A stretch of DNA of 64,000 nucleotides from an uncultured Acidobacteriota bacterium (GCA_963804995.1 CAWDSK010000003.1:1408001-1472000), one strand, 5' to 3'; shown: positions 9,302 to 60,751, counted from the first letter of the stretch. The notes: generated from the sequence alone by a model not told the origin. Numbers and translations: made by a program.

Positions 9302-9431
9302 CTAGCAGGCTGTCGAAAAACCCTTACGGTGCGACGTAGCGGCGGGTCTATCCCGCCATTTTATGCCACGCGATCGCGGGCAGGATGGCGGGGTAAACCC
9401 GCCGCTACCTCATTTTTCATCAGCCTGCTAG
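9302..9431. mobile_element. MITE/REPIN-like element: terminal inverted repeats enclosing a GTAG-REP doublet
   Basis: CTAGCAGGCTGTCGAAAAA (9302-9320) / TTTTTCATCAGCCTGCTAG (9413-9431). Inside: GTAGCGGCGGGTCTATCCCGCCA and the inverted TGGCGGGGTAAACCCGCCGCTAC. Confidence 0.65.
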
Positions 9432-26527: not shown

Positions 26528-26570
26528 GGCGTAAGAGCCTCTCTCTCGGAAGCTGTAGGAAAATCCCGTT

Positions 26571-26714
26571 GTAGCAGCGGGTTTACCCCGCCATGTGGCG
26601 AGGTGAACTCGCCGCTACGTACTGGCGTGGCGAGGTGAACTCGCCGCTACGTACTGGCGTGGCGAGGTAAACTCGCCGCTACGTGCTGCGGTGGCGAGGT
26701 AAACTCGCCGCTAC
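26571..26714. repeat. GTAG-REP array: one inverted copy plus four direct copies at 32-bp period
   Basis: TGGCGAGGT(G/A)AACTCGCCGCTAC starts at 26596, 26628, 26660 and 26692; inverted variant at 26571-26593. Confidence 0.85.
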
Positions 26715-26832
26715 ATCAAACTGACCCACCGCCCCCGCGAATAGTCTCTTTTTAACGGGCCAAAAGTAAAGTAAAGTATTCACCCATTGGGCGGGCTACA
26801 TTCAACAAAATGCTTTGAGAGGAGGCAACAAA

Positions 26833-34702: not shown

Positions 34703-34815
34703 TCCAGACCACCTTCGCGCGTCGGACGCAATGTCCGCGCACGTATTTCGCGCTTATCCTAGTTCACCGGTGCGCGCCTGTCAACAACGCAGCGCCTAAC
34801 GACGGTCATTGAGTT

Positions 34816-34863
34816 GTAGCGGCGAGTTTACCTCGCCATATGGCGAGGTAAACTCGCCGCTAC
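34816..34863. repeat. GTAG-REP doublet (head-to-head)
   Basis: GTAGCGGCGAGTTTACCTCGCCA-TA-TGGCGAGGTAAACTCGCCGCTAC; same family as 26571-26714. Confidence 0.85.
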
Positions 34864-34889
34864 AACATCAGATTGGCCCACTCCCCCCC

Positions 34890-37354: not shown

Positions 37355-37390
37355 TGCTCGGAAACTCCGGTAGTCGGTCAATTGGATACT

Positions 37391-37465
37391 GTAGCGGCGA
37401 GTTTACCCCGTCATATTGTAGCGGCGATTTTACATCGCCATATGGCGAGGTAAACTCGCCGCTAC
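37391..37465. repeat. GTAG-REP triplet between smoG and smoK
   Basis: Two direct GTAGCGGCGA(G/T)TTTAC..CG(T/C)CA copies plus one inverted copy. Confidence 0.8.
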
Positions 37466-37469
37466 GAAA

Positions 37470-38291
37470 TCACTTCACCGCACCAAACGAGAGGCCGCGT
37501 ACCAACTGCCGCTGGCTGAGCCATCCGAATATCAGGATGGGCGTGATCGATAACGTTGACGCCGCTGACAGCTTCGCCCAGAACAGGCCTTCGGGACTGG
37601 CGAAGGACGCCGTGAAGTTGGCCAGTGTGGCGGCCTTCACGGTGGTCAGGTTCAGACTCCAAAACGCCTCGTTCCAGCTAAGGATGATGGATAGCAGCGC
37701 CGTGGCGGCGATGCCGGGCGTGCACAAGGGCAACAGGACATGCACCAGTTCATCCCACGGCGACGCTCCGTCCATGCGGCTGGCCTCCAGGATCACCGCG
37801 GGCACTTCCCGGAAGAAGGTAAAGAGCATCCACACCACAATCGGCAGGACGCTGGCGCTATCAATCAGAATGAGCCCGGAGACCGTGTCCAGCAGGTGGA
37901 GATCGCGCCACAACAGGTAAATCGGAACCAGGACGCCCACCGCAGGCAACATTTTGGTCGAGAGCATCCAAAGCAGCATGTCCCGCGTGCGCCGCGTGGG
38001 GAAAAAGGCCATGCTGTAAGCCGCAGGGATGGCCAGCGCCAGGGCCAGCAGAGTCGACCCCAGAGAAACCAGGATGCTGTTTCTTGCGAACGCCACGTAG
38101 TCAGCCCGCTGCAGGACCGCGGCGTAATTCTCGAGGGTCGGCCGGAAGAGCAGCACGGGAGGTGTCGCAACCGCAGTGATCTCCGTCTTAAAGCTGGTCA
38201 GGAACATCCACAAGATCGGGAAAAACATTCCCAACCCGACGGCCCAACCGGCTATCGTCAAACCCCATCGCTGCTGCCAAGTGCTTCTCAA
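37470..38291 (-). CDS. smoG: Polyol ABC transporter permease (SmoG/MtlG-like)
   Basis: WMLSTKMLPAVG, EAA-like loop, WNEAFW, SPEGLFWAKLSAAS, QLVRGLSFGAVK. TTG start overlaps the smoF stop. Confidence 0.85.
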   Translation of the reverse strand: MRSTWQQRWGLTIAGWAVGLGMFFPILWMFLTSFKTEITAVATPPVLLFRPTLENYAAVLQRADYVAFARNSILVSLGSTLLALALAIPAAYSMAFFPTRRTRDMLLWMLSTKMLPAVGVLVPIYLLWRDLHLLDTVSGLILIDSASVLPIVVWMLFTFFREVPAVILEASRMDGASPWDELVHVLLPLCTPGIAATALLSIILSWNEAFWSLNLTTVKAATLANFTASFASPEGLFWAKLSAASTLSITPILIFGWLSQRQLVRGLSFGAVK

Positions 38292-39181
38292 CGGTAATCC
38301 TCCAGATTGCGCCCCACCACTCGCATGAAGAAAAAGGCGACGATATTCGCCAGGATGATGGCAATCACTCCGCCCGCGGAGGCGCGCCCTACGTCCCATC
38401 CCAATAACGCGTCGCGAAAGATCAGATAAGCGAGGTTCGTGGAAGCAAGCCCCGGGCCTCCGCCCGTCGTAACATAGATCTCCGCAAAGAGGCTGAGAAA
38501 GAAAATCGTTTCCATCATCGCTACGACTGACATGGGCCGCAGCAGATGAGGCAACTCAATGTGATAGAAAAGCGCCACAGGCCCCGCGCCATCCAGGCGG
38601 GCCGCCTCTTTCAGTTCCGGGTTCAGCGACTGCAGCGCCGGAAGCAGGATCAGCACCGCAAAAGGAGTCCACTCCCAACTGACAATCAGAGCGATAGAGA
38701 GCAGCGGGACGTGGGAGAAGAATTCGATGGTACCGAGCCCGCAGGAGCGGGTGATCCAGGCGAAGAGCCCGAACACCGGGTTCATCAGCATGTTCTTCCA
38801 GATCAATGCGCTCACCGTGGGCATGACGAAGAACGGGGCAATGACCAGCCAGCGGCAGAGGTTGCGTCCCGGAAAATCCTTATCCAGCAGAACGGAGAAG
38901 AGCGTCCCCCCTACCAGTGTGACCAGCAGAACCAGCCCCACCAGAAACAGGGTGTTGCCCATGGCCACCCAGAGGGCGCGGTTGGTGAGGAGAGAGCGGT
39001 AATTCTCCCAGCCGGCGAAGGCGCTTTTTCCGGGAAGCAGAAGGTTATAGCGCTCCCCGGAAAACCAGAGCGTCATCGCCAGAGGTACGATCATCCACAA
39101 AAACAAAAAGGCGACGCAGGGCGCAAGCAGCGGCGCTGTGCGAAAACGGCGGTGCGATTTTTCGAGGCTGATCCCGTTCAC
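38288..39181 (-). CDS. smoF: Polyol ABC transporter permease (SmoF/MtlF-like)
   Basis: WMIVPLAMTLWFS..YNLL, APFFVMPTVSALIWKNM, EAARLDGA, TTGGGPG. Confidence 0.85.
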   Translation of the reverse strand: MNGISLEKSHRRFRTAPLLAPCVAFLFLWMIVPLAMTLWFSGERYNLLLPGKSAFAGWENYRSLLTNRALWVAMGNTLFLVGLVLLVTLVGGTLFSVLLDKDFPGRNLCRWLVIAPFFVMPTVSALIWKNMLMNPVFGLFAWITRSCGLGTIEFFSHVPLLSIALIVSWEWTPFAVLILLPALQSLNPELKEAARLDGAGPVALFYHIELPHLLRPMSVVAMMETIFFLSLFAEIYVTTGGGPGLASTNLAYLIFRDALLGWDVGRASAGGVIAIILANIVAFFFMRVVGRNLEDYR

Positions 39182-40548
39182 TTCCGTTGCCTTCCTGCGA
39201 TGGCGCGTTCGGTGTCCGCCTGCGCCCGCGCCAACGCTTGCTCCACCGTCACCGTCCCTGCCAATGCCGCGCTGATTTCCTGGCCGACTTCCGTGCCGAT
39301 GGCCTGAAACTCCGGAATGCCCACGTACTGAATCCCCACGTAAGGAACCGGCAAGGCGCTGGGCTTCCGATAATCCGCGTTCAGAATCCCCTCGCGTACC
39401 AGCGTTGCAAAGGGGGCGGCGCGCTGGTATTCAGGATTATCGTAAGTGGATTGCCGCGAGCCCGGGGGGACCCACAGCCAGCCATACCGCTCCCCCACCC
39501 GGACAATGTAACTGCGGCTGGTTGCCCACTTGACGAACTGTTTGGCGAGGGCGCTGCGCGGGGACGAGGTGGGAATGGCCAGCGCCCAGCTCCACACCCA
39601 GGCCGCGCCGTTGGGAAATCTGGCGACGGGCATCTTGGCGAAACCCGTGGTCGTGGCGACGCGGCTCTGGCGCGAGTCCAGAAAATAGGGCGCGGCCGAA
39701 GTAGCGTCCACCCACATGGCGCAGTTGCCGTTGGCGAACAGGGCGCGGTTTTCGTTGTAGCCGTTGGTAATGGCCCCCGGCGGCCCGTAGTTGCGCAGCA
39801 AGTCGACATAAAAACTTACGGCTTCAATCCAAGCCGGACTGGTGAGCTGCGGTTGCCAGTCAAGGTCGAACCAACGGCCGCCAAACGTGTGGACAAGGGT
39901 GCTGACGTAGCTTGTGTTCTGCCCCCAGCCGGGCTCGCCGCGCAGGCAGATGCCGTAGACGCCGTGCTCCGGGTCATGCAGCTTTTCGGCAAACTGGCAG
40001 ATCTGCTCGTAACGGGGCGCGAGGGGCATTTCGATCCCGGCCTTTTGGAACAGGTCCTTGCGGTAGTAAGTAAAGCTGCTCTCTCCATAAAAGGGCGCCG
40101 CGTACATTTTCCCTTGATACGAAAGGCCCTGGCGGATCACCTGAAAGATGTCGTCATATCCATAGTCCGCGCCCAGGTCGTCCACAGCAACCAGCCAGCC
40201 GCGCTCTCCCCAGAGGGGGGCTTCGTAGGATCCGATGGTAATTACATCAAAGGTGTTGCTGCCGGTAGAAATATCTACCGTCAATCGTTGCCGCAGGACG
40301 TTCTCGCCCAGGACCACCCAATTCAATTTGACGCCATTCTGCTTTTCGAATTCCTTGGAAAGCTGCTGCATCAGGATCATGTCAGCGTTGTTCACGGTGG
40401 CAATGGTCAGCTCCGGCCGAGAAGGCGGCGGATAGAGAATCCACGCCAGCAGCGCCGCGCCCAGCAACAGTCCAAGTTTTTTCCAAGTCAGATTTGCGGA
40501 TGCCATGTCATTGTGATCGGCAGTCGTCCCACCCGCTGGCCAGGACAT
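39178..40548 (-). CDS. smoE: Sorbitol/mannitol ABC transporter substrate-binding protein (SmoE/MtlE-like)
   Basis: LTIATVNN-x-DMI-x-MQ, LNWV-x-L-x-EN-x-LRQR, PFYGESS, GICLRG-x-x-GWG, IPEFQ-x-IGT. Confidence 0.87.
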   Translation of the reverse strand: MSWPAGGTTADHNDMASANLTWKKLGLLLGAALLAWILYPPPSRPELTIATVNNADMILMQQLSKEFEKQNGVKLNWVVLGENVLRQRLTVDISTGSNTFDVITIGSYEAPLWGERGWLVAVDDLGADYGYDDIFQVIRQGLSYQGKMYAAPFYGESSFTYYRKDLFQKAGIEMPLAPRYEQICQFAEKLHDPEHGVYGICLRGEPGWGQNTSYVSTLVHTFGGRWFDLDWQPQLTSPAWIEAVSFYVDLLRNYGPPGAITNGYNENRALFANGNCAMWVDATSAAPYFLDSRQSRVATTTGFAKMPVARFPNGAAWVWSWALAIPTSSPRSALAKQFVKWATSRSYIVRVGERYGWLWVPPGSRQSTYDNPEYQRAAPFATLVREGILNADYRKPSALPVPYVGIQYVGIPEFQAIGTEVGQEISAALAGTVTVEQALARAQADTERAIAGRQRK

Positions 40549-40566
40549 AGCGGCCTCGCGCTGGTC

Positions 40567-40745
40567 GGCTGGCGCCCCGACGAGTCGGGGCGATTTCCCA
40601 ACCGGATTTGTGCGGGCCTGCGGCTCATCCCAGTGGGCTGATAGTACGGCGTGCGGTCGGAAAGTCTATCCGCGTCCAGCCCTTGCCTGAAGAGTGTCCC
40701 TTCGGAACATCGCAGACCCCCAAGTGCCGGGGTCTGCGCCAGCCA
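40567..40745. repeat. REPIN/MITE-like element, degenerate paralog of the intron-interrupted element at 41073-43170
   Basis: Shares the GGCTGGCG left end, the CGATTTCCCAAC..TGCGGCT.ATCCCAGTGGGCTG core, and the TCGCAGACCCCCAAGT.CCGGGGTCTGCGCCAGCC right arm. Confidence 0.75.
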
Positions 40746-41080
40746 GCGGCACTCGGATGACCATGAAGCTAGCCCTCTCCGTTGGGGAGAGGGTGGACCG
40801 CAACCGGCGCTTTCACCAGCCCGGGCGGGCCGGGCCTACGCCCGCCGAAGGGGCTCGGGCAATACCTAGACCACTTCGGCTTCGGCCCGCAGGCGGGTGA
40901 GGGGTCACTTCCAGGCCGGCCAGCGAACACTCGGACTTTTTTCATCAGCTTGCTCATCCGACTGCGAGCGGGAGTCTACATCACGGCGAGCACTGCTTGC
41001 AAATTCCATTCAAAGTGCCGATTATGAGCGGTGGCAACAGTACCGATGTTGGATATAACGTTGGTGTCCGACGGCTGGCG

Positions 41081-42993
41081 GTTGCGGTAGGGATACCGGT
41101 TACCCGGTACCCCCCGCACGGATCCGTACGTGCGCTGGTTAGCGCATACGGCTCTTATCTCGGATGTGTGGCGGCGAACCGTTGGGATGGCCAAGGATGC
41201 ACAACGTGCGGAGCAGGCAACCAGCAGGCCGCAAGCTTCCCCAGTCGGTCCCAGTTGAGGCGGTGGCGTTGACTGCGTTGACGCAGTTGTGTTCGCCACA
41301 GTCGGGTCAACCGTTCCCGAAAGATTCGCAGGCGGTCGAGGTTTCCCGGTACCGCGTGATAGTTGAAGTAGCCTTGCACGACCGACCGGAGCCATTTACC
41401 CGTATCCGCGATGGGATCGTGCCGACGCTGCCGGAGTTGTTGCTTGAGTTCCTGCAACTTCCCCCGCAGGCGCTTGCTGATCGTCTTCCGCTTCACGGTA
41501 AATTGCCCCCTCCGGTTCTTCCCGCTGATATGCGTGAAGCCCAGAAAGTCGAACGTCTCCGGCTTACCTTCTCCTCTCCGTTTCCGGTAAAGTTCGGCAA
41601 ACGGCCCGAACTCGATCCGGCGCGTTTTGTCAGGATGCAGTTCCAATCCAAACTTCCCCACCCGCTCCCGGAAATCCTCCAGAAAGCGGTCGGCTTCCGT
41701 CTGCGATTGGAATCCAAGGACCGTATCGTCGGCATACCGCACCACGACCACGTCTCCCCGGGCGTGCTTCTTGCGCCACGCCTGCACCCACAGGTCAAAG
41801 ACGTAGTGCAGATAGATATTCGCCAGCAGGGGCGAGACCACCGCCCCTTGTGGCGTACCCATCTCCGTCTCCGACCATTCGCCTTCCTCCCTCACCCCGG
41901 CTTTCAGCCATTTCTGGATGAGCCGGAGAATCCGGGGGTCGGCGACGCGATGCTGCACGAACTTGAGCATCCATTCGTGGGATATCGAATCGAAAAATCC
42001 ACGAATGTCCGCGTCAAGAACGTAGTTCACGTGCTTCACCGTGAGCGCGTACGAGAGCGCGTCCAGCGCTTGATGCTGGCTGCATCCCGGTCGAAAGCCA
42101 TACGAGAAGCCCAGAAAGTCTTCCTCGTAAATCGCATTGAGGATGGTGACCACGGCCTGTTGGACGATCTTGTCCTCCAGTGCCGCAACCCCCAACGGAC
42201 GTTGCCGCCCGTCGCCTTTCGGGATATACGCCCTTCGCGAGGGCTTCGCTCGGAATGCTCCGCGGTGGACCCGGCTGTGCAGATCGACGAGTCGACCTTC
42301 CAGCCCGCTTTCATACTCCTGCCACGTCATGCCGTCTACTCCCGGTGCAGCTTTTCGCTTCAAGGCGTAAAAGCTTTCCCGCAGCAGATCGACCGTTAAG
42401 TGGTGGAGCAAGGCCGTGAACTTCATCTCCCTGTGTTCCTTCGCGGCTTTCCGCACACCCGCGAGTCCCTGGGACACGCGTGCCCCGCTCTGTGTCGGGT
42501 GCGTGTTAGGCCAACGGGTGTTCTCCTTGATCAGCGGCCTTCCCTCCTCATTCTCCGCCAACGGCTTCCCGTCTTTGTTCAAATGATTCATCGGTACTGT
42601 TCCGCTGTCCGACTCCTCGAAAGCGTGCAGGCGGGCTGTACGGCCATCGCCTTTTCCCGCCGTCCGGCCACGATCTACGGCGGCCGGCGCCTCCGAGGTC
42701 TCCCGGTTCTCGTGCAGAAAGTGTCTAGGCGTGTCTGGGGTCTACGACTACGCAGGACTGTGCCGGAACTCGCGTTGGCGTCCCGGCCTCATGTTGCCTT
42801 CCGTTTAGTCTGAAAACGTCGGCGTCCTGATTGGACATTTTCGAAGCTCAATACCCAGCCCACCTATTCCCCTGTTTACGCTTCACCGTGCGCCTCACGA
42901 CGCCCAGCGCAAAACTCGGGGCCGAGTGGATCGCTGCTCCTTCCTCGTGAGAAATTTTCATTCTCTGCTTTCTGCCGGTTTATCCCGGCGCAC
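41081..42993 (-). mobile_element. Group II intron (IIB-like, endonuclease-less), about 1913 nt
   Basis: Minus-strand 5' end GTGCG at 42993. Domain V/VI GAGCCGTATGCG..CGCACGTACGGATC..GGGGGGTACCGGGTAACCGGTATCCCTACCGCAAC ends at 41081. Internal RT ORF; EBS1 loop CAGACU at 42812-42807. Confidence 0.92.
41155..42591 (-). CDS. ltrA: Group II intron reverse transcriptase/maturase
   Basis: APGVDG, RPLG..EDKIVQ, SYGFRP, DI-x-x-FFD, GTPQG, RYADD, FDFLGF, and domain X (GYFNYH); no HNH domain. Confidence 0.95.
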   Translation of the reverse strand: MNHLNKDGKPLAENEEGRPLIKENTRWPNTHPTQSGARVSQGLAGVRKAAKEHREMKFTALLHHLTVDLLRESFYALKRKAAPGVDGMTWQEYESGLEGRLVDLHSRVHRGAFRAKPSRRAYIPKGDGRQRPLGVAALEDKIVQQAVVTILNAIYEEDFLGFSYGFRPGCSQHQALDALSYALTVKHVNYVLDADIRGFFDSISHEWMLKFVQHRVADPRILRLIQKWLKAGVREEGEWSETEMGTPQGAVVSPLLANIYLHYVFDLWVQAWRKKHARGDVVVVRYADDTVLGFQSQTEADRFLEDFRERVGKFGLELHPDKTRRIEFGPFAELYRKRRGEGKPETFDFLGFTHISGKNRRGQFTVKRKTISKRLRGKLQELKQQLRQRRHDPIADTGKWLRSVVQGYFNYHAVPGNLDRLRIFRERLTRLWRTQLRQRSQRHRLNWDRLGKLAACWLPAPHVVHPWPSQRFAATHPR

Positions 42994-43170
42994 CAGACCC
43001 CGGTACTTGGGGGTCTGCGATTTCCCAACGGGACTTTTAAGGGCTTGCGGCTGATCCCAGTGGGCTGGTAGTAGGCATGCTGTCGGAGAGTCCACTTGTG
43101 CCAATCCCGTGCCGGAAGAATGTCCTTTCAGGAAATCGCAGACCCCCAAGTACCGGGGTCTGCGCCAGCC
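42994..43170. repeat. REPIN-like element (right portion); its left arm is split by the intron
   Basis: 41073-41080 joined to 42994-43025 gives GGCTGGCGCAGACCCCGGTACTTGGGGGTCTGCGATTTCC, the exact reverse complement of 43131-43170. Confidence 0.9.
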
Positions 43171-43205
43171 AGCCGCCATAATCCAGCGGACCGGGGAGAA
43201 TCGAA

Positions 43206-44231
43206 ATGCTTCGCGCCACCATGACCAGTCCGGGGAAAATCGAGTTTACGGAAGTGCCGAAGCCTTTACTCGGCGACCACGACGTTTTGTTGCGCATCCG
43301 CCGGATTGGAATCTGCGGGTCTGATATCCACGTTTATCACGGTAAACATCCGTACACTTCCTATCCGGTTGTGCAGGGCCACGAATTCTGCGGGGAGGTT
43401 GCGGAAATTGGCCCGAGCGTCCAATCCTTTCACAGAGGCGATCTGGCCACGGCTCCTCCGCAGATTGTTTGTGGCGAGTGCCTGCCTTGCCGCGAGGGGC
43501 GCTATCACATCTGCGAGCGCCTGAAGGTAATGGGGTTTCAAGCCCCGGGAGTTGCGCAGGAGTTCTTCTCCCTCCCGGAATCTGCCTTGTTGAAACTGCC
43601 GGCAGGGTTCACGCTGGAATCGGGCGCGCTGGTTGAGCCGACGGCGGTCGCGATCCATGCCGTGGGCCGGGCGGGCAGTGTGGCGGGACTGAACGTGCTC
43701 GTCCTGGGTGCGGGACCCATCGGTAACCTGGTCGCCCAGGTGGCACGGTGGCGCCATGCTCGACGGGTAGCGATATCCGACCTCAGCAACCCGCGCTTGG
43801 AAATCGCCCGGCAATGCGGAATCGAACACACCATTAATTCCCGCGAGGCTCCTCTCGAAAATTACGTGGCGGAGGTGTTCGGCTCGAATCGCGCGGACGT
43901 GGCCTTTGAATGCGTGGGGGCCGCCGAAACCGCGAACCAGGCCATCCACAACGTCAGAAAGGGTGGCACCATTGTCGTGGTGGGGGTGTTTGGCGATCGC
44001 CCCCAGGTTGACTTGGGACTGGTGCAGGATCGCGAGCTCGAGCTGCGAGGGACCTTGATGTACCAGCGCCAGGACTACGTGGAGGCGATTCGCTGCCTCA
44101 GCGAGGGAGGTATCACGGTTGGCCCCCTGCTGACCAGGACATTCCCCTTCCGCCAATACCCCGAGGCGTATGCCTTCATCGAGGACAACCGCGAGAAGGT
44201 CATGAAGGTCATGCTGGAGTTTGACGAGTAA
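43206..44231 (+). CDS. Zn-dependent alcohol dehydrogenase (sorbitol/threonine dehydrogenase-like)
   Basis: GICGSD, GHE, CGECLPC..C and GAGPIG motifs; GGAG RBS. Confidence 0.9.
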   Translation: MLRATMTSPGKIEFTEVPKPLLGDHDVLLRIRRIGICGSDIHVYHGKHPYTSYPVVQGHEFCGEVAEIGPSVQSFHRGDLATAPPQIVCGECLPCREGRYHICERLKVMGFQAPGVAQEFFSLPESALLKLPAGFTLESGALVEPTAVAIHAVGRAGSVAGLNVLVLGAGPIGNLVAQVARWRHARRVAISDLSNPRLEIARQCGIEHTINSREAPLENYVAEVFGSNRADVAFECVGAAETANQAIHNVRKGGTIVVVGVFGDRPQVDLGLVQDRELELRGTLMYQRQDYVEAIRCLSEGGITVGPLLTRTFPFRQYPEAYAFIEDNREKVMKVMLEFDE

Positions 44232-44444: not shown

Positions 44445-46502
44445 ATGAACAGCAGTATTCGCTTATTCAGTTTTGTCATGCTTTGTACAGCTTTGTCAAC
44501 TTCACCGCGGCTTGTTGCCCAAGAACGGCCAGACCGGGATCCGTTTCTCCACTGGATGGATGAGATTGCGCAGCGGCAACTTCGCGATCGGGAAAACACG
44601 ATTGCCGCCATCCACACTGTGGCTGAGGCGGAGCACCGAAAGCAGTACGTCCGGGAAAAGCTAATCGAGATTCTGGGTGGCCTGCCAAACTACAGCGGTC
44701 CGCTGAACGCCAAGATCACGGGTCAAATTCAGGGGGACGGTTACACCATCGAGAAGGTAGTTTTCGAAAGCTTGCCAAACTTCTACGTGACGGCCAATGT
44801 CTATCGGCCGAACCAGCCCGGGCGCTACCCCGGTGTGCTGCTTCAAGCGGGCCATACGCAGGAGGGAAAGCCGGAGGATCAACGGCTGGCCGCTAATCTG
44901 GCTCTCAAGGGATATGTCGTGCTGGCTTTCGATCCCATCGGTCAAGGCGAAAGGGAGCAGACCTATGACCGGTTGACAGACCGGGCTGCCGCGGGGTGGT
45001 CCGTACCCGAGCACATTCAAGGGGGGGCGGAAGCCCAGCTTATCAATGAGGGCATGGGCCGCTGGTTCATTTGGGATGCCAAACGCGCGATCGACTATCT
45101 GGAAAGCCGCCCGGATGTGGACGCTTCACACCTGGGAGCCGCGGGTTGCTCCGGCGGTGGAGCCTTGACAACCTATATTGGCGCTCTCGATACGCGGCTT
45201 AAGGCAGTGGCGCCTTCCTGCTTCACTCAATCCATGCACGTGTTGTTTACCGGCCCTGACCCTGATTCCGAGATGAGCTTCCCGAAATCTCTCGTGAGTG
45301 GCCTGGATCACGCAGATTTTGCGGAATTGGCTGCTCCCACTCCCTGGCTGTTCCTCGCGACTGAGGGTGATTTCTTCACCCCCACGGGAGCCAAGATGGT
45401 TTATGACGAGGCCCGGCGCTGGTACGCGATTTACGGGGCGGAGGATAAAGTTCGCTACTTTGTGGGGCACGGCCCTCATGGCACACCGCTCGAAACCCGG
45501 CAAATCATGTACGAGTGGTTCAACCGCTGGCTCAAGAATGGCCAGGGGGATGACCATGAGCTGCCGGTACATCAGTACGCCAACTTTGAACTTCTGGCGA
45601 CGCCCACGGGTCATGTGGATGACTTGCCGGGTAGTCGTAAGGTCTATCAATTGATCATGGATGAGCTGCGTGCCAAGGAGCAGCCCGGAACAATTCCCGA
45701 TCTCTTGGCGGAGCTGCGAAAGTTGGGGGTCCCCACCGACGGTACTCCTCCCGATGTGAAGGTTGTCGATGATTCAAGAGTTCCCGAGGGCCGGCTTGAG
45801 CGCATCCGTTTTGAGAGTGAACCGGGCGTGGAGATTGGCGGAAAGCTCTACATTCCGGATTCCGCGGGGCGGAAGCCGGCAGTGCTGCTAGTGGCGGATG
45901 AATCCAGGAACTATTGGGTTCTGCCTACTGACGCGTTAGCTAAGAGGATGGCGAAGTTGGGGCGAGTCGTTCTCGAACTGGAGGTCCGTGACTCTCCGGG
46001 TGAACAAGGGCGGCCGTTTATCGGAAATTGGCAGACTAATGCCCGTGCCGATCAAATTGGGCGCAACCTTCCGGCGATGCGCGCGCATGACATTCTGCGT
46101 GGCATCGATGTGCTCACCGCACGCAGCGATGTTGACCCGGCCTCAATTCATGCGACTGCGCGGGATGCGAAGGGAGTTTGGCTCCTGCTGGCAGCAGCGA
46201 TGGACACCAGGATCAGCAAGATCTGGTTGGATAAGACCCCGTACAGTGTGCGGGAGGCTTTGAATCGGCCCATGAACGAAAACCTATTCGACGCGGTGAT
46301 TCCCGGCTTCGCGCTGCGTTGGGACTTGGAGGATCTGACCAAGGCTATGGGGAACCGTCCAGTGTTGTGGACCGACCCAAAGAACTGGCTGGGCAAGATT
46401 GTTCCTCTCGGTTCCACCTATCGGTACCGGTACGTGACTGGGGATACGACGGACCTGCTCAATGCACAAGACGACGAGATTATGGATGACTTCCTGAAGT
46501 GA
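44445..46502 (+). CDS. Secreted acetylxylan esterase-like double alpha/beta hydrolase (intact paralog of 2805-4863)
   Basis: IEKVVFES-x-P, DPIGQGER and GCSGGG nucleophile; signal peptide from ATG 44445. Confidence 0.8.
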   Translation: MNSSIRLFSFVMLCTALSTSPRLVAQERPDRDPFLHWMDEIAQRQLRDRENTIAAIHTVAEAEHRKQYVREKLIEILGGLPNYSGPLNAKITGQIQGDGYTIEKVVFESLPNFYVTANVYRPNQPGRYPGVLLQAGHTQEGKPEDQRLAANLALKGYVVLAFDPIGQGEREQTYDRLTDRAAAGWSVPEHIQGGAEAQLINEGMGRWFIWDAKRAIDYLESRPDVDASHLGAAGCSGGGALTTYIGALDTRLKAVAPSCFTQSMHVLFTGPDPDSEMSFPKSLVSGLDHADFAELAAPTPWLFLATEGDFFTPTGAKMVYDEARRWYAIYGAEDKVRYFVGHGPHGTPLETRQIMYEWFNRWLKNGQGDDHELPVHQYANFELLATPTGHVDDLPGSRKVYQLIMDELRAKEQPGTIPDLLAELRKLGVPTDGTPPDVKVVDDSRVPEGRLERIRFESEPGVEIGGKLYIPDSAGRKPAVLLVADESRNYWVLPTDALAKRMAKLGRVVLELEVRDSPGEQGRPFIGNWQTNARADQIGRNLPAMRAHDILRGIDVLTARSDVDPASIHATARDAKGVWLLLAAAMDTRISKIWLDKTPYSVREALNRPMNENLFDAVIPGFALRWDLEDLTKAMGNRPVLWTDPKNWLGKIVPLGSTYRYRYVTGDTTDLLNAQDDEIMDDFLK

Positions 46503-47659
46503 TGACTCAAGTGCAGCAGGCAAAGCGTTCTCGAAGGATAGTGGGCGCAATGGCACCGGCGATATTGCTGGTGGCGGCGGCATCCGTGTTGACCTTACCG
46601 CCACAAAAAGGAATACAGGCGGGTGTGACCCAAGCCTCACTGGATGGGAAGGAAGGCGCCGCAGTAACAGAGCGGGCCGGGGGCAATCCGTTCGTCCCCA
46701 TTGTACTTTCTCAATCGGGGCCGTCCCCGTACCGCTTGGCATCGATGTCCACGCTGAGACTCACGATGACCGGGCACACCGACCGTGTTTTCAGTGTGGC
46801 CTGGAGCCCTGACGGCAAGCGCCTGGCGACGGGGAGTGCCGACGGCACCGCCAGGGTTTGGGATGCCAATAGCGGGAAGGAATTACTCGTCTTACGCGGC
46901 CACCCCGACTTTGTTTGGAGCGTTGCCTGGAGCCCTGACGGTACGCGCTTAGCCACCGCCAGCGAGGACAACACGGTGAAGGTTTGGGACGCCGCGAGCG
47001 GTATGGAATTGTCGACGTTGAGGGGCCACACCGAATCCGTCCAAAGTGTGGCATGGAGTCCAGATGGCAAGTTCTTGGCGACCGCTAGCCGTGATACCAC
47101 GGCGAAGGTGTGGGATGCCGCGAGTGGTAAGCTACTCCAGACCATGAAGGGCCACATTGACTACCTGTGGGACGTGGCCTGGAGCCCGGACGGCACGCGC
47201 TTGGCGACGGCCAGTTGGGATACCACGGCGAAGGTGTGGGACGCCGCTAGCGGCAAGCTTCTTGTGACCCTGACCGGCCACGTTGCAATTGTTTACTGCG
47301 TGGCTTGGAGTCCCGATGGCAAATTCCTGGCCACGACGAGTGACGATCACACCGTGAAGATCTGGGACGCGGAAAGCGGCAAGGAATTGCGCACCCTCAA
47401 CGGCCACGAGGGCTTTGTCTTGAGCGCGGCTTGGCGCCCTGACGGCAGGCTCCTGGCGACGGGCAGTGTTGACCACACCGTAAAACTATGGGATCCGAAG
47501 GATGGAAAGCTCCTGGATACCCTGGAGGGCCACGGCGGGGTCGTTTGGAAAGTGGCGTGGAGCCCGGATGGCTCGCGCCTGGCGACGGCCTGTGGAGACT
47601 TCAAGGTCAGAGTGTATAACGTCGGGGCCGGCAGTGCAGCGCGCACACCCGTAACTTAA
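46502..47659 (+). CDS. WD40-repeat (7-bladed propeller) protein with an N-terminal hydrophobic signal/anchor
   Basis: Seven 42-aa GH..V-x-x-VAWSPDG-x-x-LAT-x-S-x-D-x-T-x-x-x-WD repeats; TGATG overlap with the upstream stop. Confidence 0.9.
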   Translation: MTQVQQAKRSRRIVGAMAPAILLVAAASVLTLPPQKGIQAGVTQASLDGKEGAAVTERAGGNPFVPIVLSQSGPSPYRLASMSTLRLTMTGHTDRVFSVAWSPDGKRLATGSADGTARVWDANSGKELLVLRGHPDFVWSVAWSPDGTRLATASEDNTVKVWDAASGMELSTLRGHTESVQSVAWSPDGKFLATASRDTTAKVWDAASGKLLQTMKGHIDYLWDVAWSPDGTRLATASWDTTAKVWDAASGKLLVTLTGHVAIVYCVAWSPDGKFLATTSDDHTVKIWDAESGKELRTLNGHEGFVLSAAWRPDGRLLATGSVDHTVKLWDPKDGKLLDTLEGHGGVVWKVAWSPDGSRLATACGDFKVRVYNVGAGSAARTPVT

Positions 47660-48302: not shown

Positions 48303-48976
48303 AGATCGGGGCGTTGGGTGGTGCATTTTGGAATGTATGTGACGGGCTGGCGCATCAGAGCGAGCCCAGCTCTGCGATTCACGTGTCTGACCTTGCCCGC
48401 TGATCATTGGGTGGTGAAGTAACCCCTCACCCGCCTGCGGACCGAAGCTGATGTTGTTTACATCTCACGGGTACCCCTTCGGTGGGCGTAGGCCCGTCGC
48501 GCTTCCCGATGAAGTACATCGGGACAGCACGCCACCCTCTCACCTCGGAGAGGGCTATGAATTCAACTTCTAACCCGCCGAACCCGTACGCGCTATGCTT
48601 GCTGACTGGAAGCCAACGCGTCCTCAGAAAGCACAGAGAGATAACATCCCACCGAACCAAGTCGTGCGTAGCGAGCATTCCCCCGCAACCTTCACGCCGG
48701 GCCAGGTTGACATTATGTCGATACCAAAAGAGTACTTGACAGAGGTCAAAGTCAGGAGTATTCATGTAGGCGGATAATCAAGACATACCCCTTCCGCCCA
48801 CCCCACACCGGTGGGCCCGCGATCGGGTTGAGGTTTGGTGTAGTCCACGTTTTAGGTTCACGAATCGGCGTGCAAGCGCCGAAGATGAAACGGTCCTCAG
48901 GTTAGTTTAACACTGCTTTTTGGTAGTCAACTTTATCGCGTCGGGTCTGGGTCACAATCGAAGGAGGACAATCATT

Positions 48977-52977: not shown

Positions 52978-53184
52978 GTGTGGTGTCCCGGATAATATTT
53001 GACAAGGCTGTCCGACCCCCTCACCCCCCATCCCCTCTGTCGCCGCGGCGACCGAGGGGAGAGTTAATTCCCTTGCCCTCGCCCCTTTGGGGGAGAGGGT
53101 GGCTGGTCGAGGCGTTCTCATCAGCCGAGGCCAGACGGGTGAGGGGGTTCTACCCATTGTCAACTCTAGCACGGGACACCACAC
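52978..53184. mobile_element. MITE-like element with 13-bp terminal inverted repeats, carrying REP-like hairpins
   Basis: GTGTGGTGTCCCG (52978-52990) / CGGGACACCACAC (53172-53184), plus an internal TTGACAA/TTGTCAA pair. Confidence 0.55.
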
Positions 53185-60461: not shown

Positions 60462-60751
60462 GTAGTGTCCTAGTTTGGGAAAAAGCCCCAAATGACCCCT
60501 CGCCCGTCCCGCCCCGGCTGATGAAAACGCCGGCTGCGGTCCACCCTCTCCCCTCGGAGAGGGCGGTTGCTCAAGGTAAGGTGCGGCGCCGGAGCCACCC
60601 TGAGATCATAGCCTTCTCCCTAGGGGAGAAGGTGGCTGACGTAGGAGGCCGGATGAGGGGTTACTTACAGCCGCAGGGCGTCGAAACAATTTGCAACTTA
60701 TAAAAAATTCAAAAACCATTAACCCGGCGCTACGTCAAACTAGGACACTAC
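60462..60751. mobile_element. MITE-like element with 16-bp perfect terminal inverted repeats
   Basis: GTAGTGTCCTAGTTTG (60462-60477) / CAAACTAGGACACTAC (60736-60751), enclosing two CCCTCTCCC-family hairpins; no ORF. Confidence 0.7.

Follow-up and report, generated by a model that had tools for sequence, protein, structure and literature searches.

Among the closest described counterparts of the element treated here are the introns RmInt1 and RmInt2 of Sinorhizobium meliloti. Their targets are ISRm2011-2 and the inverted repeat of ISRm17 (PMC5894124), strain GR4 carries 10 RmInt1 and 7 RmInt2 copies (PMC5894124; PMC3552965, table S1), and the substrate of RmInt1 is the lagging-strand template (PMC8914252, PMC4424553). 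In the targets of class C (IIC) introns a DNA hairpin precedes the first intron-binding sequence (IBS1) (PMC7923331), and terminator targeting of the IIC-like kind has been described together with expansions of class E introns in some genomes (PMC8919778). A IIB intron is known beside an attC site, and the same study notes that for IIB introns a role of upstream structure has not been reported (PMC7923331). For class E (IIE) the second exon-binding sequence (EBS2) is dispensable for splicing in vitro and a role in homing has been proposed (PMC3753933). Here we describe a group II intron at positions 41081–42993 (minus strand) of a 64,000-nt stretch of DNA from an uncultured Acidobacteriota bacterium (GCA_963804995.1, CAWDSK010000003.1:1408001-1472000; hereafter the window, with positions counted from its first letter). 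The intron splits a repetitive extragenic palindrome (REP), and its copies in the genome occupy the same position of the same repeat.

REP families with a GTAG foot have been described (PMC3733652); for Acidobacteria the available portion of that paper lists transposases flanked by terminal inverted repeats and not GTAG REPs. The enzyme TnpA-REP requires foot and stem of the REP (PMC8266576), and in P. putida 2 of 9 group II intron copies are tabulated as REP-associated (PMC1525189). A literature search that lacked most subscription papers and the intron database returned no description of group II intron homing into REP stems. The available portions of PMC3753933, PMC4244168 and PMC5894124 name no REP targets for class E, and those of PMC8643678, PMC12584367 and bioRxiv 10.64898/2026.09.22.753630 hold nothing on REP targets. 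We assign a probability of roughly 0.65 to the reading that a class E intron retrohomes into the REPs of a system of REP-associated tyrosine transposases (RAYT) and REP doublets forming hairpins (REPIN), the site being read mainly as sequence. It is well supported that the case is one of ordinary class E retrohoming, unusual in its target, which is abundant and belongs to another mobile system.

Copies of the intron and their target

Excision of 41081–42993 fuses 41073–41080 with 42994–43025, and the rejoined 40-bp arm is identical at 40 of 40 positions to the reverse complement of 43131–43170, without a target duplication. A precise insertion into the arm of a REPIN-like repeat is what the original prediction had proposed. 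The intron is 1,913 nt long, starts with GTGCG and ends with AAC. Its 5’ exon (42994–43025, minus strand) is the hairpin part of the split REP and comprises IBS1 (42994–42999), the loop (43002–43009, including IBS2 at 43002–43006) and the 5’ stem arm (43010–43019). The 3’ exon (41073–41080, minus strand) consists of the last 2 bp of the REP stem and the CTGG foot (41075–41078 on the plus strand). As had been foreseen, the hexamer CAGACU at 42812–42807 lies inside the EBS1 loop, which is the d3 terminal loop both in the Rfam alignment and in the minimum-free-energy fold (stem-loop 42802–42818, delta U at 42813), and it matches GGTCTG through five Watson-Crick pairs and one U-G pair. EBS3, a G at 42745, pairs with the C at exon position +1 (41080), and a candidate short EBS2, UGUCC (42837–42833), pairs with exon positions -9 to -13 in the REP loop.

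The genome (G000; 7.55 Mb in nine contigs, C1–C9; other G-numbers denote genomes and L-numbers loci) holds 39 full or nearly full copies and one fragment at a contig end, which are more than 99.6% identical. The open reading frame (ORF) is intact in 38 of the 39 copies, the EBS1 stem-loop is the same in all 39, and 33 haplotypes can be distinguished. All 37 copies with both flanks visible are located at GTCYG^CGCYA in the stem of REPs with a GTAG or CTGG foot, and the visible flanks of the remaining three agree with this site. Finding 37 of 37 copies at the same bond of the same repeat is far beyond chance. Seen from the opposite strand, the site is a REP: its foot is GTAG or CTGG, its 10-bp stem begins with CGCAGACC, and its loop has 7–8 nt. 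The cut falls inside the stem, with two bases between it and the stem base, on the face with the order tail, hairpin, foot. The expectation that every copy would lie at GGTCTG^CGCCAGCC held for bond and repeat, and the motif itself turned out to be wider: the GTAG-footed subfamily (^CGCTA) accounts for 23 of the 37 copies, and GGTCCG is present in four. Dispersed intergenic palindromes had been named as the target set, and 36 of the 37 copies in the repeat do lie outside genes called with a crude codon model; such a set may be harmless and renewable. An assembly artefact was ruled out by the distinct flanks of each copy and the 33 haplotypes; the partial copy at the start of C2 and the copy at the end of C9 may represent one locus. 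Mobility is suggested by the 40 near-identical copies, and we are probably looking at a young class E group II intron that is still mobile. In tandem REP arrays at C6:2168574-2172663 and C7:1-3886 two intron copies stand in neighboring units, 264 and 69 bp apart, and several contig ends coincide with intron copies.

In the intron-free genome we counted 1,200 GTCYG^CGC sites, defining a hairpin by at least 8 of 10 pairs. Full motif and hairpin occur together at 253 sites, of which 35 are filled, giving the count of empty versus filled repeats that had been proposed as a check. One of 73 sites with the motif but without the hairpin is filled (a decayed REP), as is one of 71 with a hairpin but without the full motif, and none of the 803 with neither. 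The 253 sites have 203 GTAG, 38 CTGG and 12 other feet, and 239 of them lie outside the crude gene calls. Two other abundant repeat families, with 248 and 437 pattern matches genome-wide, contain no copy of the studied intron.

Among 14 Y1_Tnp matches tested two RAYT genes, L011 and L012, score above the NF047646 cut-off. The former is bracketed by CTGG REPs, the latter has GTAG REPs around it, and next to each gene one REP is broken by the intron. By analogy with the system in PMC8266576, these REPs would be cleaved and mobilized by RAYTs. The rejoined element of the window aligns with the L011 REPtron over 75 nt at its left end and 117 nt at its right end; it is therefore best read, on this alignment, as a REPtron with an internal deletion. 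The two halves of its 105-bp spacer (43026–43130) align with the inner ends of this REPtron, which is located on C6. The second REP arm of the REPIN (43131–43170, plus strand) is empty and has its usable face on the non-permissive strand.

The filled and empty sites differ in several respects. REP stems vary by a compensatory A-T/G-C pair, and the intron occupies 33 of 143 T-type sites, against 4 of 112 C-type sites, which have one mismatch to EBS1 (p = 4.6e-6). Where GC skew has one sign throughout a contig, as on four of the nine, the copies have the G-rich strand, normally the template of lagging-strand synthesis, as their sense strand in 26 of 27 cases compared to 60 of 162 empty sites (p = 2e-9). 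T-type sites on these contigs are filled in 23 of 44 cases on the permissive strand, so that about half of the usable sites are already occupied, and in 1 of 64 on the other. The direction of the upstream gene is unrelated to intron orientation (18 vs 16, p = 0.85).

IBS1 and IBS3 are present on either strand of each palindrome, which thus has two faces with the same stem, IBS1 and IBS3 and with different loops and 3’ exons. This provides a mirror-face control: of the T-type hairpins on the permissive strand, the intron occupies 0 of 66 that present the foot-to-tail face and 21 of 49 that present the tail-to-foot face, a count that leaves out two filled copies, one with a weak hairpin and one with a short flank. 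Without a 3’ foot the mirror face is filled in 0 of 76. Hairpin, EBS1 and EBS3 therefore do not suffice for targeting. The candidate EBS2 forms 1.0 pairs on the unused face and 2.7–3.0 on the used face, and its best loop match, GACG, is present in 3 of 4 filled C-type sites compared to 6 of 108 empty ones (p = 0.0014). New in this work are the short EBS2 reading the REP loop, the bias for the lagging-strand template and the mirror-face control; the original prediction had pointed out neither EBS2 nor EBS3 nor the strand bias.

Relatives, class and retargeting

The closest relatives of the intron belong to Acidobacteriota, and its 5’ end is matched in 19 of 28 genomes of the same genus. Junctions were taken from 79 loci of a genome contig collection and from genomes of genus and family; 178 candidate rows yielded 114 true 5’ ends, while 64 were dropped (false starts, short flanks, G000 itself). 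The pairing of EBS1 with the exon, which had been proposed for the window locus, is also backed by covariation: in a fixed register the hexamer forms 5.48 of 6 pairs, compared to 2.75 ± 0.14 after shuffling (64 stem-loops, 44 hexamers), and EBS2 forms 2.73 of 3 pairs compared to 1.80 ± 0.09 (48 introns), although kin are not independent and these shuffle statistics overstate the effect. EBS3 pairs with the exon in 41 of 42 relatives. For EBS2 compensation in mismatched targets points in the same direction as covariation.

A hairpin in this register is found at 18 of the 114 junctions: at 17 of the 27 in which EBS1 starts with CA or CG and the exon ends with G, and at 1 of the 87 others. Guides and targets change together. 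We found CAGACC with GGTCTG (G009, G029), CGGACU with GGTCCG (G008, G009; L023, L270), CAGACU with AGTCTG (G005, L016), CAUACU with TGTATG (G021, G014; L250, L289) and CAGAGC with GCTCTG (G008; L324). Some of the REP-targeting relatives are ORF-less and about 650 nt long. Introns that use REPs also occur at weak or non-hairpin sites (L279, L240). The idea that the intron of each species fits its own REP variant is too simple, as T- and C-type REPs coexist in all five sister genomes counted: the intron of G029 is T-type even though 137 of the empty motifs there are C-type and 37 T-type, and introns for either type are present in G009. In many relatives GUAAGCG, GAAAGCG, GAUAGCG or GAGCG replaces GUGCG at the 5’ end, which was fixed by EBS1 pairing (L016, L238-L241, L246, L270, L311, L324, L015, L033). 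The studied genome has six truncated remnants of related introns at other targets (C1:441114, C6:842676, C5:460087, C2:652257, C1:206552, C9:36920); the first has EBS1 CAGAGC and is located within a REP-like hairpin.

Domain I of the window intron has its core at 42738–42958 (minus strand; Rfam RF02005, 170 bits). Domains V and VI at 41081–41156 (minus strand) match RF00029 with 39.2 bits, just below the 40-bit cut-off (E = 1.6e-6). Domain V has an AGC triad and a non-GNRA loop that reads as 4 or 6 nt, and domain VI a bulged A, the putative branch point assigned from sequence to 41088; for class E a domain V loop of 5 nt has been described, along with an alpha’ situated at the tip of an Id3 stem-loop (PMC3753933). 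Domain IV contains the ORF (41155–42591, minus strand), which encodes a reverse transcriptase (RT)/maturase of 478 aa with YADD, scores above the cut-off for TIGR04416 and ends with a stop codon abutting domain V. It had been predicted to be endonuclease-less, and Pfam indeed gives RVT_1 alone, with no HNH or other endonuclease domain.

In an RT phylogeny, likewise proposed earlier, this intron-encoded protein (IEP) groups with class E references with an SH-aLRT support of 98 in a quick maximum likelihood tree with long branches. The references, three of class E, two of D, two of F/g3 and one of g1, were identified by replicon, place and size from the available portions of PMC5894124, PMC4244168 and PMC3552965 and not by accession match; 6 of 38 relative loci were dropped (<150 aa), and L282 was ignored as a spurious RT match. 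Identity is 57% to the disrupted pRmeGR4b intron, which we took as S.me.I4, compared to 35% to RmInt1. On sequence grounds the intron is thus classified as a bacterial class E intron with predicted IIB-type exon recognition by EBS1, EBS2 and EBS3. Membership in class D was rejected because of the 35% identity and the separate branch, membership in class C because of the 6-bp EBS1, the covarying EBS2 and the insertion inside the stem.

Introns targeting REPs fall into two groups, that of the studied intron and one that is 61–63% identical. A single REP-targeting clade was rejected among 21 relatives (p-AU = 1.2e-8). Targeting of REP stems in the same register thus occurs in at least two intron lineages of the genus, and was therefore gained repeatedly or is an old trait often lost. 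A search of the genome contig collection for the intron end combined with a REP foot gave at least 116 loci, nearly all of them chance matches, so that nothing is inferred on spread outside Acidobacteriota; among the loci listed one has an RT match and four resemble intron 3’ ends.

A large sister group of introns (73–78% amino acid identity; L019-L022, L035-L091, numerous loci in Acidobacteriota) uses a single conserved non-hairpin motif in either direction, with a consensus near ATCGCCATTACA^CTCAT. Three other RT families in the genome are 33–38% identical to the IEP. They have six copies (C1:25388, C6:293848, C6:295804, C5:1086943, C5:1126093, C4:160577), three copies (C1:97964, C1:288722, C3:1125492; grouping with class F/g3 and with its own conserved target) and one copy (C9:153987). 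An ORF-less IIC-like intron on C3 (about 98,300–99,060, plus strand) lies in the foot of another GTAG-type hairpin, which is wholly upstream of it; similar 3’ ends are present at C3:45924 and C6:2113826.

Recognition of the site and alternative explanations

We propose that the excised intron, as a ribonucleoprotein, would reverse-splice into the single-stranded lagging-strand template at the replication fork and use the nascent strand as primer, a route known from RmInt1, which is also endonuclease-less. EBS1 would pair with the 3’ stem arm (-6 to -1), the EBS3 G with C+1 and the 3–5-nt EBS2 with the REP loop (-9 to -13), and the protein would probably contact the foot bases in the 3’ exon (+2 to +5). 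With some 250 such REPs available in intergenic regions, a copy number of about 40 came within the intron's reach. Insertion places 1.9 kb between foot and hairpin and would destroy the REP as a RAYT substrate; by changes in their EBS letters, relatives would have moved to other variants of the REP or to sites unrelated to it.

Besides the kinship of the relatives, several observations weigh against this model. In G008, copies with EBS1 CGGACU have the T at -4 substituted or missing in 5 of 6 cases, in three different ways (loci among L233-L237, L023 and L024), beside 31 perfect empty sites; a change after insertion or a consensus error is possible. With local skew over all contigs the strand bias drops to 26 or 28 of 37, since skew is faint on C1, C2 and C9; the copy at C3:231098 clearly opposes the skew. 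T-type sites show only a weak link between a full EBS2 core and filling (25 of 64 with the core, 5 of 25 without), and IBS2 of the window copy forms three pairs that are interrupted. Hairpin and 3’-foot sequence are almost fully confounded in the genome. Finally, the contigs of 4 of the 20 listed runs, which stem from mixed relatives, contain no exon–exon joint, which is evidence neither way.

IBS1 and IBS3 are buried within the REP stem, unlike in IIC targets, and the hairpin must therefore open for pairing with EBS1 and EBS3; for this reason we regard it as largely incidental to the use of a REP as target. The folded hairpin, for which an assisting role had been suggested earlier, could nevertheless itself be a recognition element, its loop, exposed on the lagging-strand template, serving as a toehold for EBS2 while EBS1 (CAGACU vs CAGACC) copies and displaces the 5’ arm of the REP. 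The position of IBS2 (-9 to -13) in the 7–8-nt loop beside the stem would suit this idea. Stable hairpins are not avoided either: stability (-11.6 kcal/mol for filled and -11.1 kcal/mol for empty sites) does not differ significantly (p = 0.083) and was discarded as a predictor of filling. Sites with IBS1 and foot and a poor IBS2 are filled in 0 of 13 cases without a hairpin and in 4 of 14 with one. In addition, REP stems are cut at one and the same register by the two lineages for which a single clade was rejected, and the CAGAGC lineage uses both hairpin faces (L324 and the remnant at C1:441114). The shared register may however be due to the EBS3 G that the lineages have in common and to the cut lying where the stem is most conserved, and a 10-bp stem of about -12 kcal/mol competes with the 6-bp EBS1 duplex. 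Most introns of the same clade are at non-hairpin sites, as the 18 of 114 junctions indicate, and the same intron can be located in a weak hairpin or none (L279, L240, C6:834341). Of 93 non-hairpin sites on the permissive strand with IBS1, IBS2 core and IBS3, 92 are empty, 21 of them outside the crude gene calls, and the single filled one, C6:834341, is also the single one with a 3’ foot. This fits recognition of sequence together with protein contacts at +2 to +5, although one case is thin evidence. On balance we regard reading of the folded hairpin as possible but unlikely. Its fuller form appears doubtful, namely a IIB-type hyperparasite of the REPIN/RAYT system that would read the folded REP with the loop as EBS2 toehold and EBS1 mimicking the 5’ arm, have reached this register more than once, inactivate REPs and REPtron ends, and with CAGACU and CGGACU chase A-T/G-C stem variants as escape alleles.

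Purifying selection offers a different account, in which the intron inserts at many EBS-matching sites and only copies in intergenic REPs are spared. There are 2,095 RGTCTG^C sites, most of them outside REPs (340 have a hairpin) and many of those in genes, and off-REP copies do occur in relatives (L240, L279). Yet intergenic non-REP matches on the permissive strand are filled in 0 of 21 cases and the mirror face of the same intergenic REPs in 0 of 66; selection cannot tell these from the filled sites, and we consider this account very improbable. Spread of a REP-intron unit as a passenger of RAYT-driven REPIN movement, gene conversion or recombination, suggested by the copies in tandem REP arrays (C6 end, C7 start) and by the relative L278 with a 3’ flank not fitting its 5’ REP, is hardly credible given that flanks differ, come from two REP subfamilies and include both T and C stem variants, each with its compensatory pair, whereas the intron stays more than 99.6% constant, that the strand bias fits reverse transcription at forks, and that insertion splits foot from hairpin, both needed by TnpA-REP (PMC8266576).

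The window locus and comparison with known systems

The window copy, probably left by retrohoming into a REP read mainly as sequence, lies in a REPIN between a divergent gene for a Zn-dependent dehydrogenase (43206–44231, plus strand) and a sugar ABC-transporter operon, the binding-protein gene of which (39178–40548, minus strand; weak UgpB match) is downstream of the intron in the same sense. A neighboring REPIN-like element of the same family (40567–40744, plus strand; 81–86% identical) has a degenerate left arm and an empty right REP (40705–40744). A scan of 40500–43300 gave no promoters and two terminator-like sites compared to 2.4 expected. The palindromic family with 437 matches is present in the window at 40779–40911, where it stands between the two REPIN-like elements, and at 2658–2713, 48416–48502, 53084–53146 and 60496–60553. 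The family with 248 matches, a GTAG REP family in doublets and tandem arrays, occurs at 9333–9416, 26568–26726, 34813–34871 and 37390–37473. A gene at 46499–47659 with seven 126-bp repeats presumably encodes a WD40-type repeat protein.

With other class E introns (S.me.I4, Ac.ma.I1, Cl.be.I2; PMC3753933, PMC4244168, PMC5894124) the intron shares an RT-X protein without endonuclease as well as EBS1, EBS2 and EBS3; it differs in an EBS2 of only 3–5 nt and in the presence of about 40 intact copies in a single genome, each of them within a REP stem. The some 250 filled and empty sites, with two faces, two strands and natural mismatches, make class E target rules directly readable, which bears on whether EBS2 serves homing in this class. 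RmInt1 and RmInt2 (class D, IIB3) are likewise endonuclease-less and EBS-programmed and home via the lagging-strand template into a multi-copy selfish element. In comparison to RmInt1 the IEP is of another class (35% identity), and the target is not an insertion sequence (IS) but a non-coding REP of 30–40 bp with some 250 copies maintained by RAYTs.

Class C introns inserting after terminators or attC sites resemble the studied intron in high copy number, intergenic position beside a DNA hairpin and lagging-strand bias (PMC8919778, PMC7923331). They lack EBS2, have an EBS1 of 3–4 bp and a hairpin wholly upstream of IBS1, whereas the studied intron has a 6-bp EBS1, a covarying EBS2 and a cut inside the stem. 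Copy numbers like those of IIC introns are thus attainable for an ordinary EBS-programmed class E intron whose guides fit an abundant repeat. The REP-targeting insertion sequences ISPpu9, ISPpu10, ISPa11 and ISPsy8 (PMC1525189) also have every copy at one REP position; they use DNA transposases, whereas the present element is an RNA-guided retroelement. The repeats themselves correspond to the described GTAG REPs, REPIN/RAYT systems and REPtrons (PMC3733652, PMC8266576) in their 4-nt foot and hairpin, inverted doublets, tandem arrays and repeat-flanked RAYT genes, and differ in that one subfamily has a CTGG foot. The locus would exemplify how one selfish element uses up what serves another as substrate, and RAYT-maintained REPs join IS elements, terminators and attC sites among the few safe sets of insertion sites on which group II introns can multiply.

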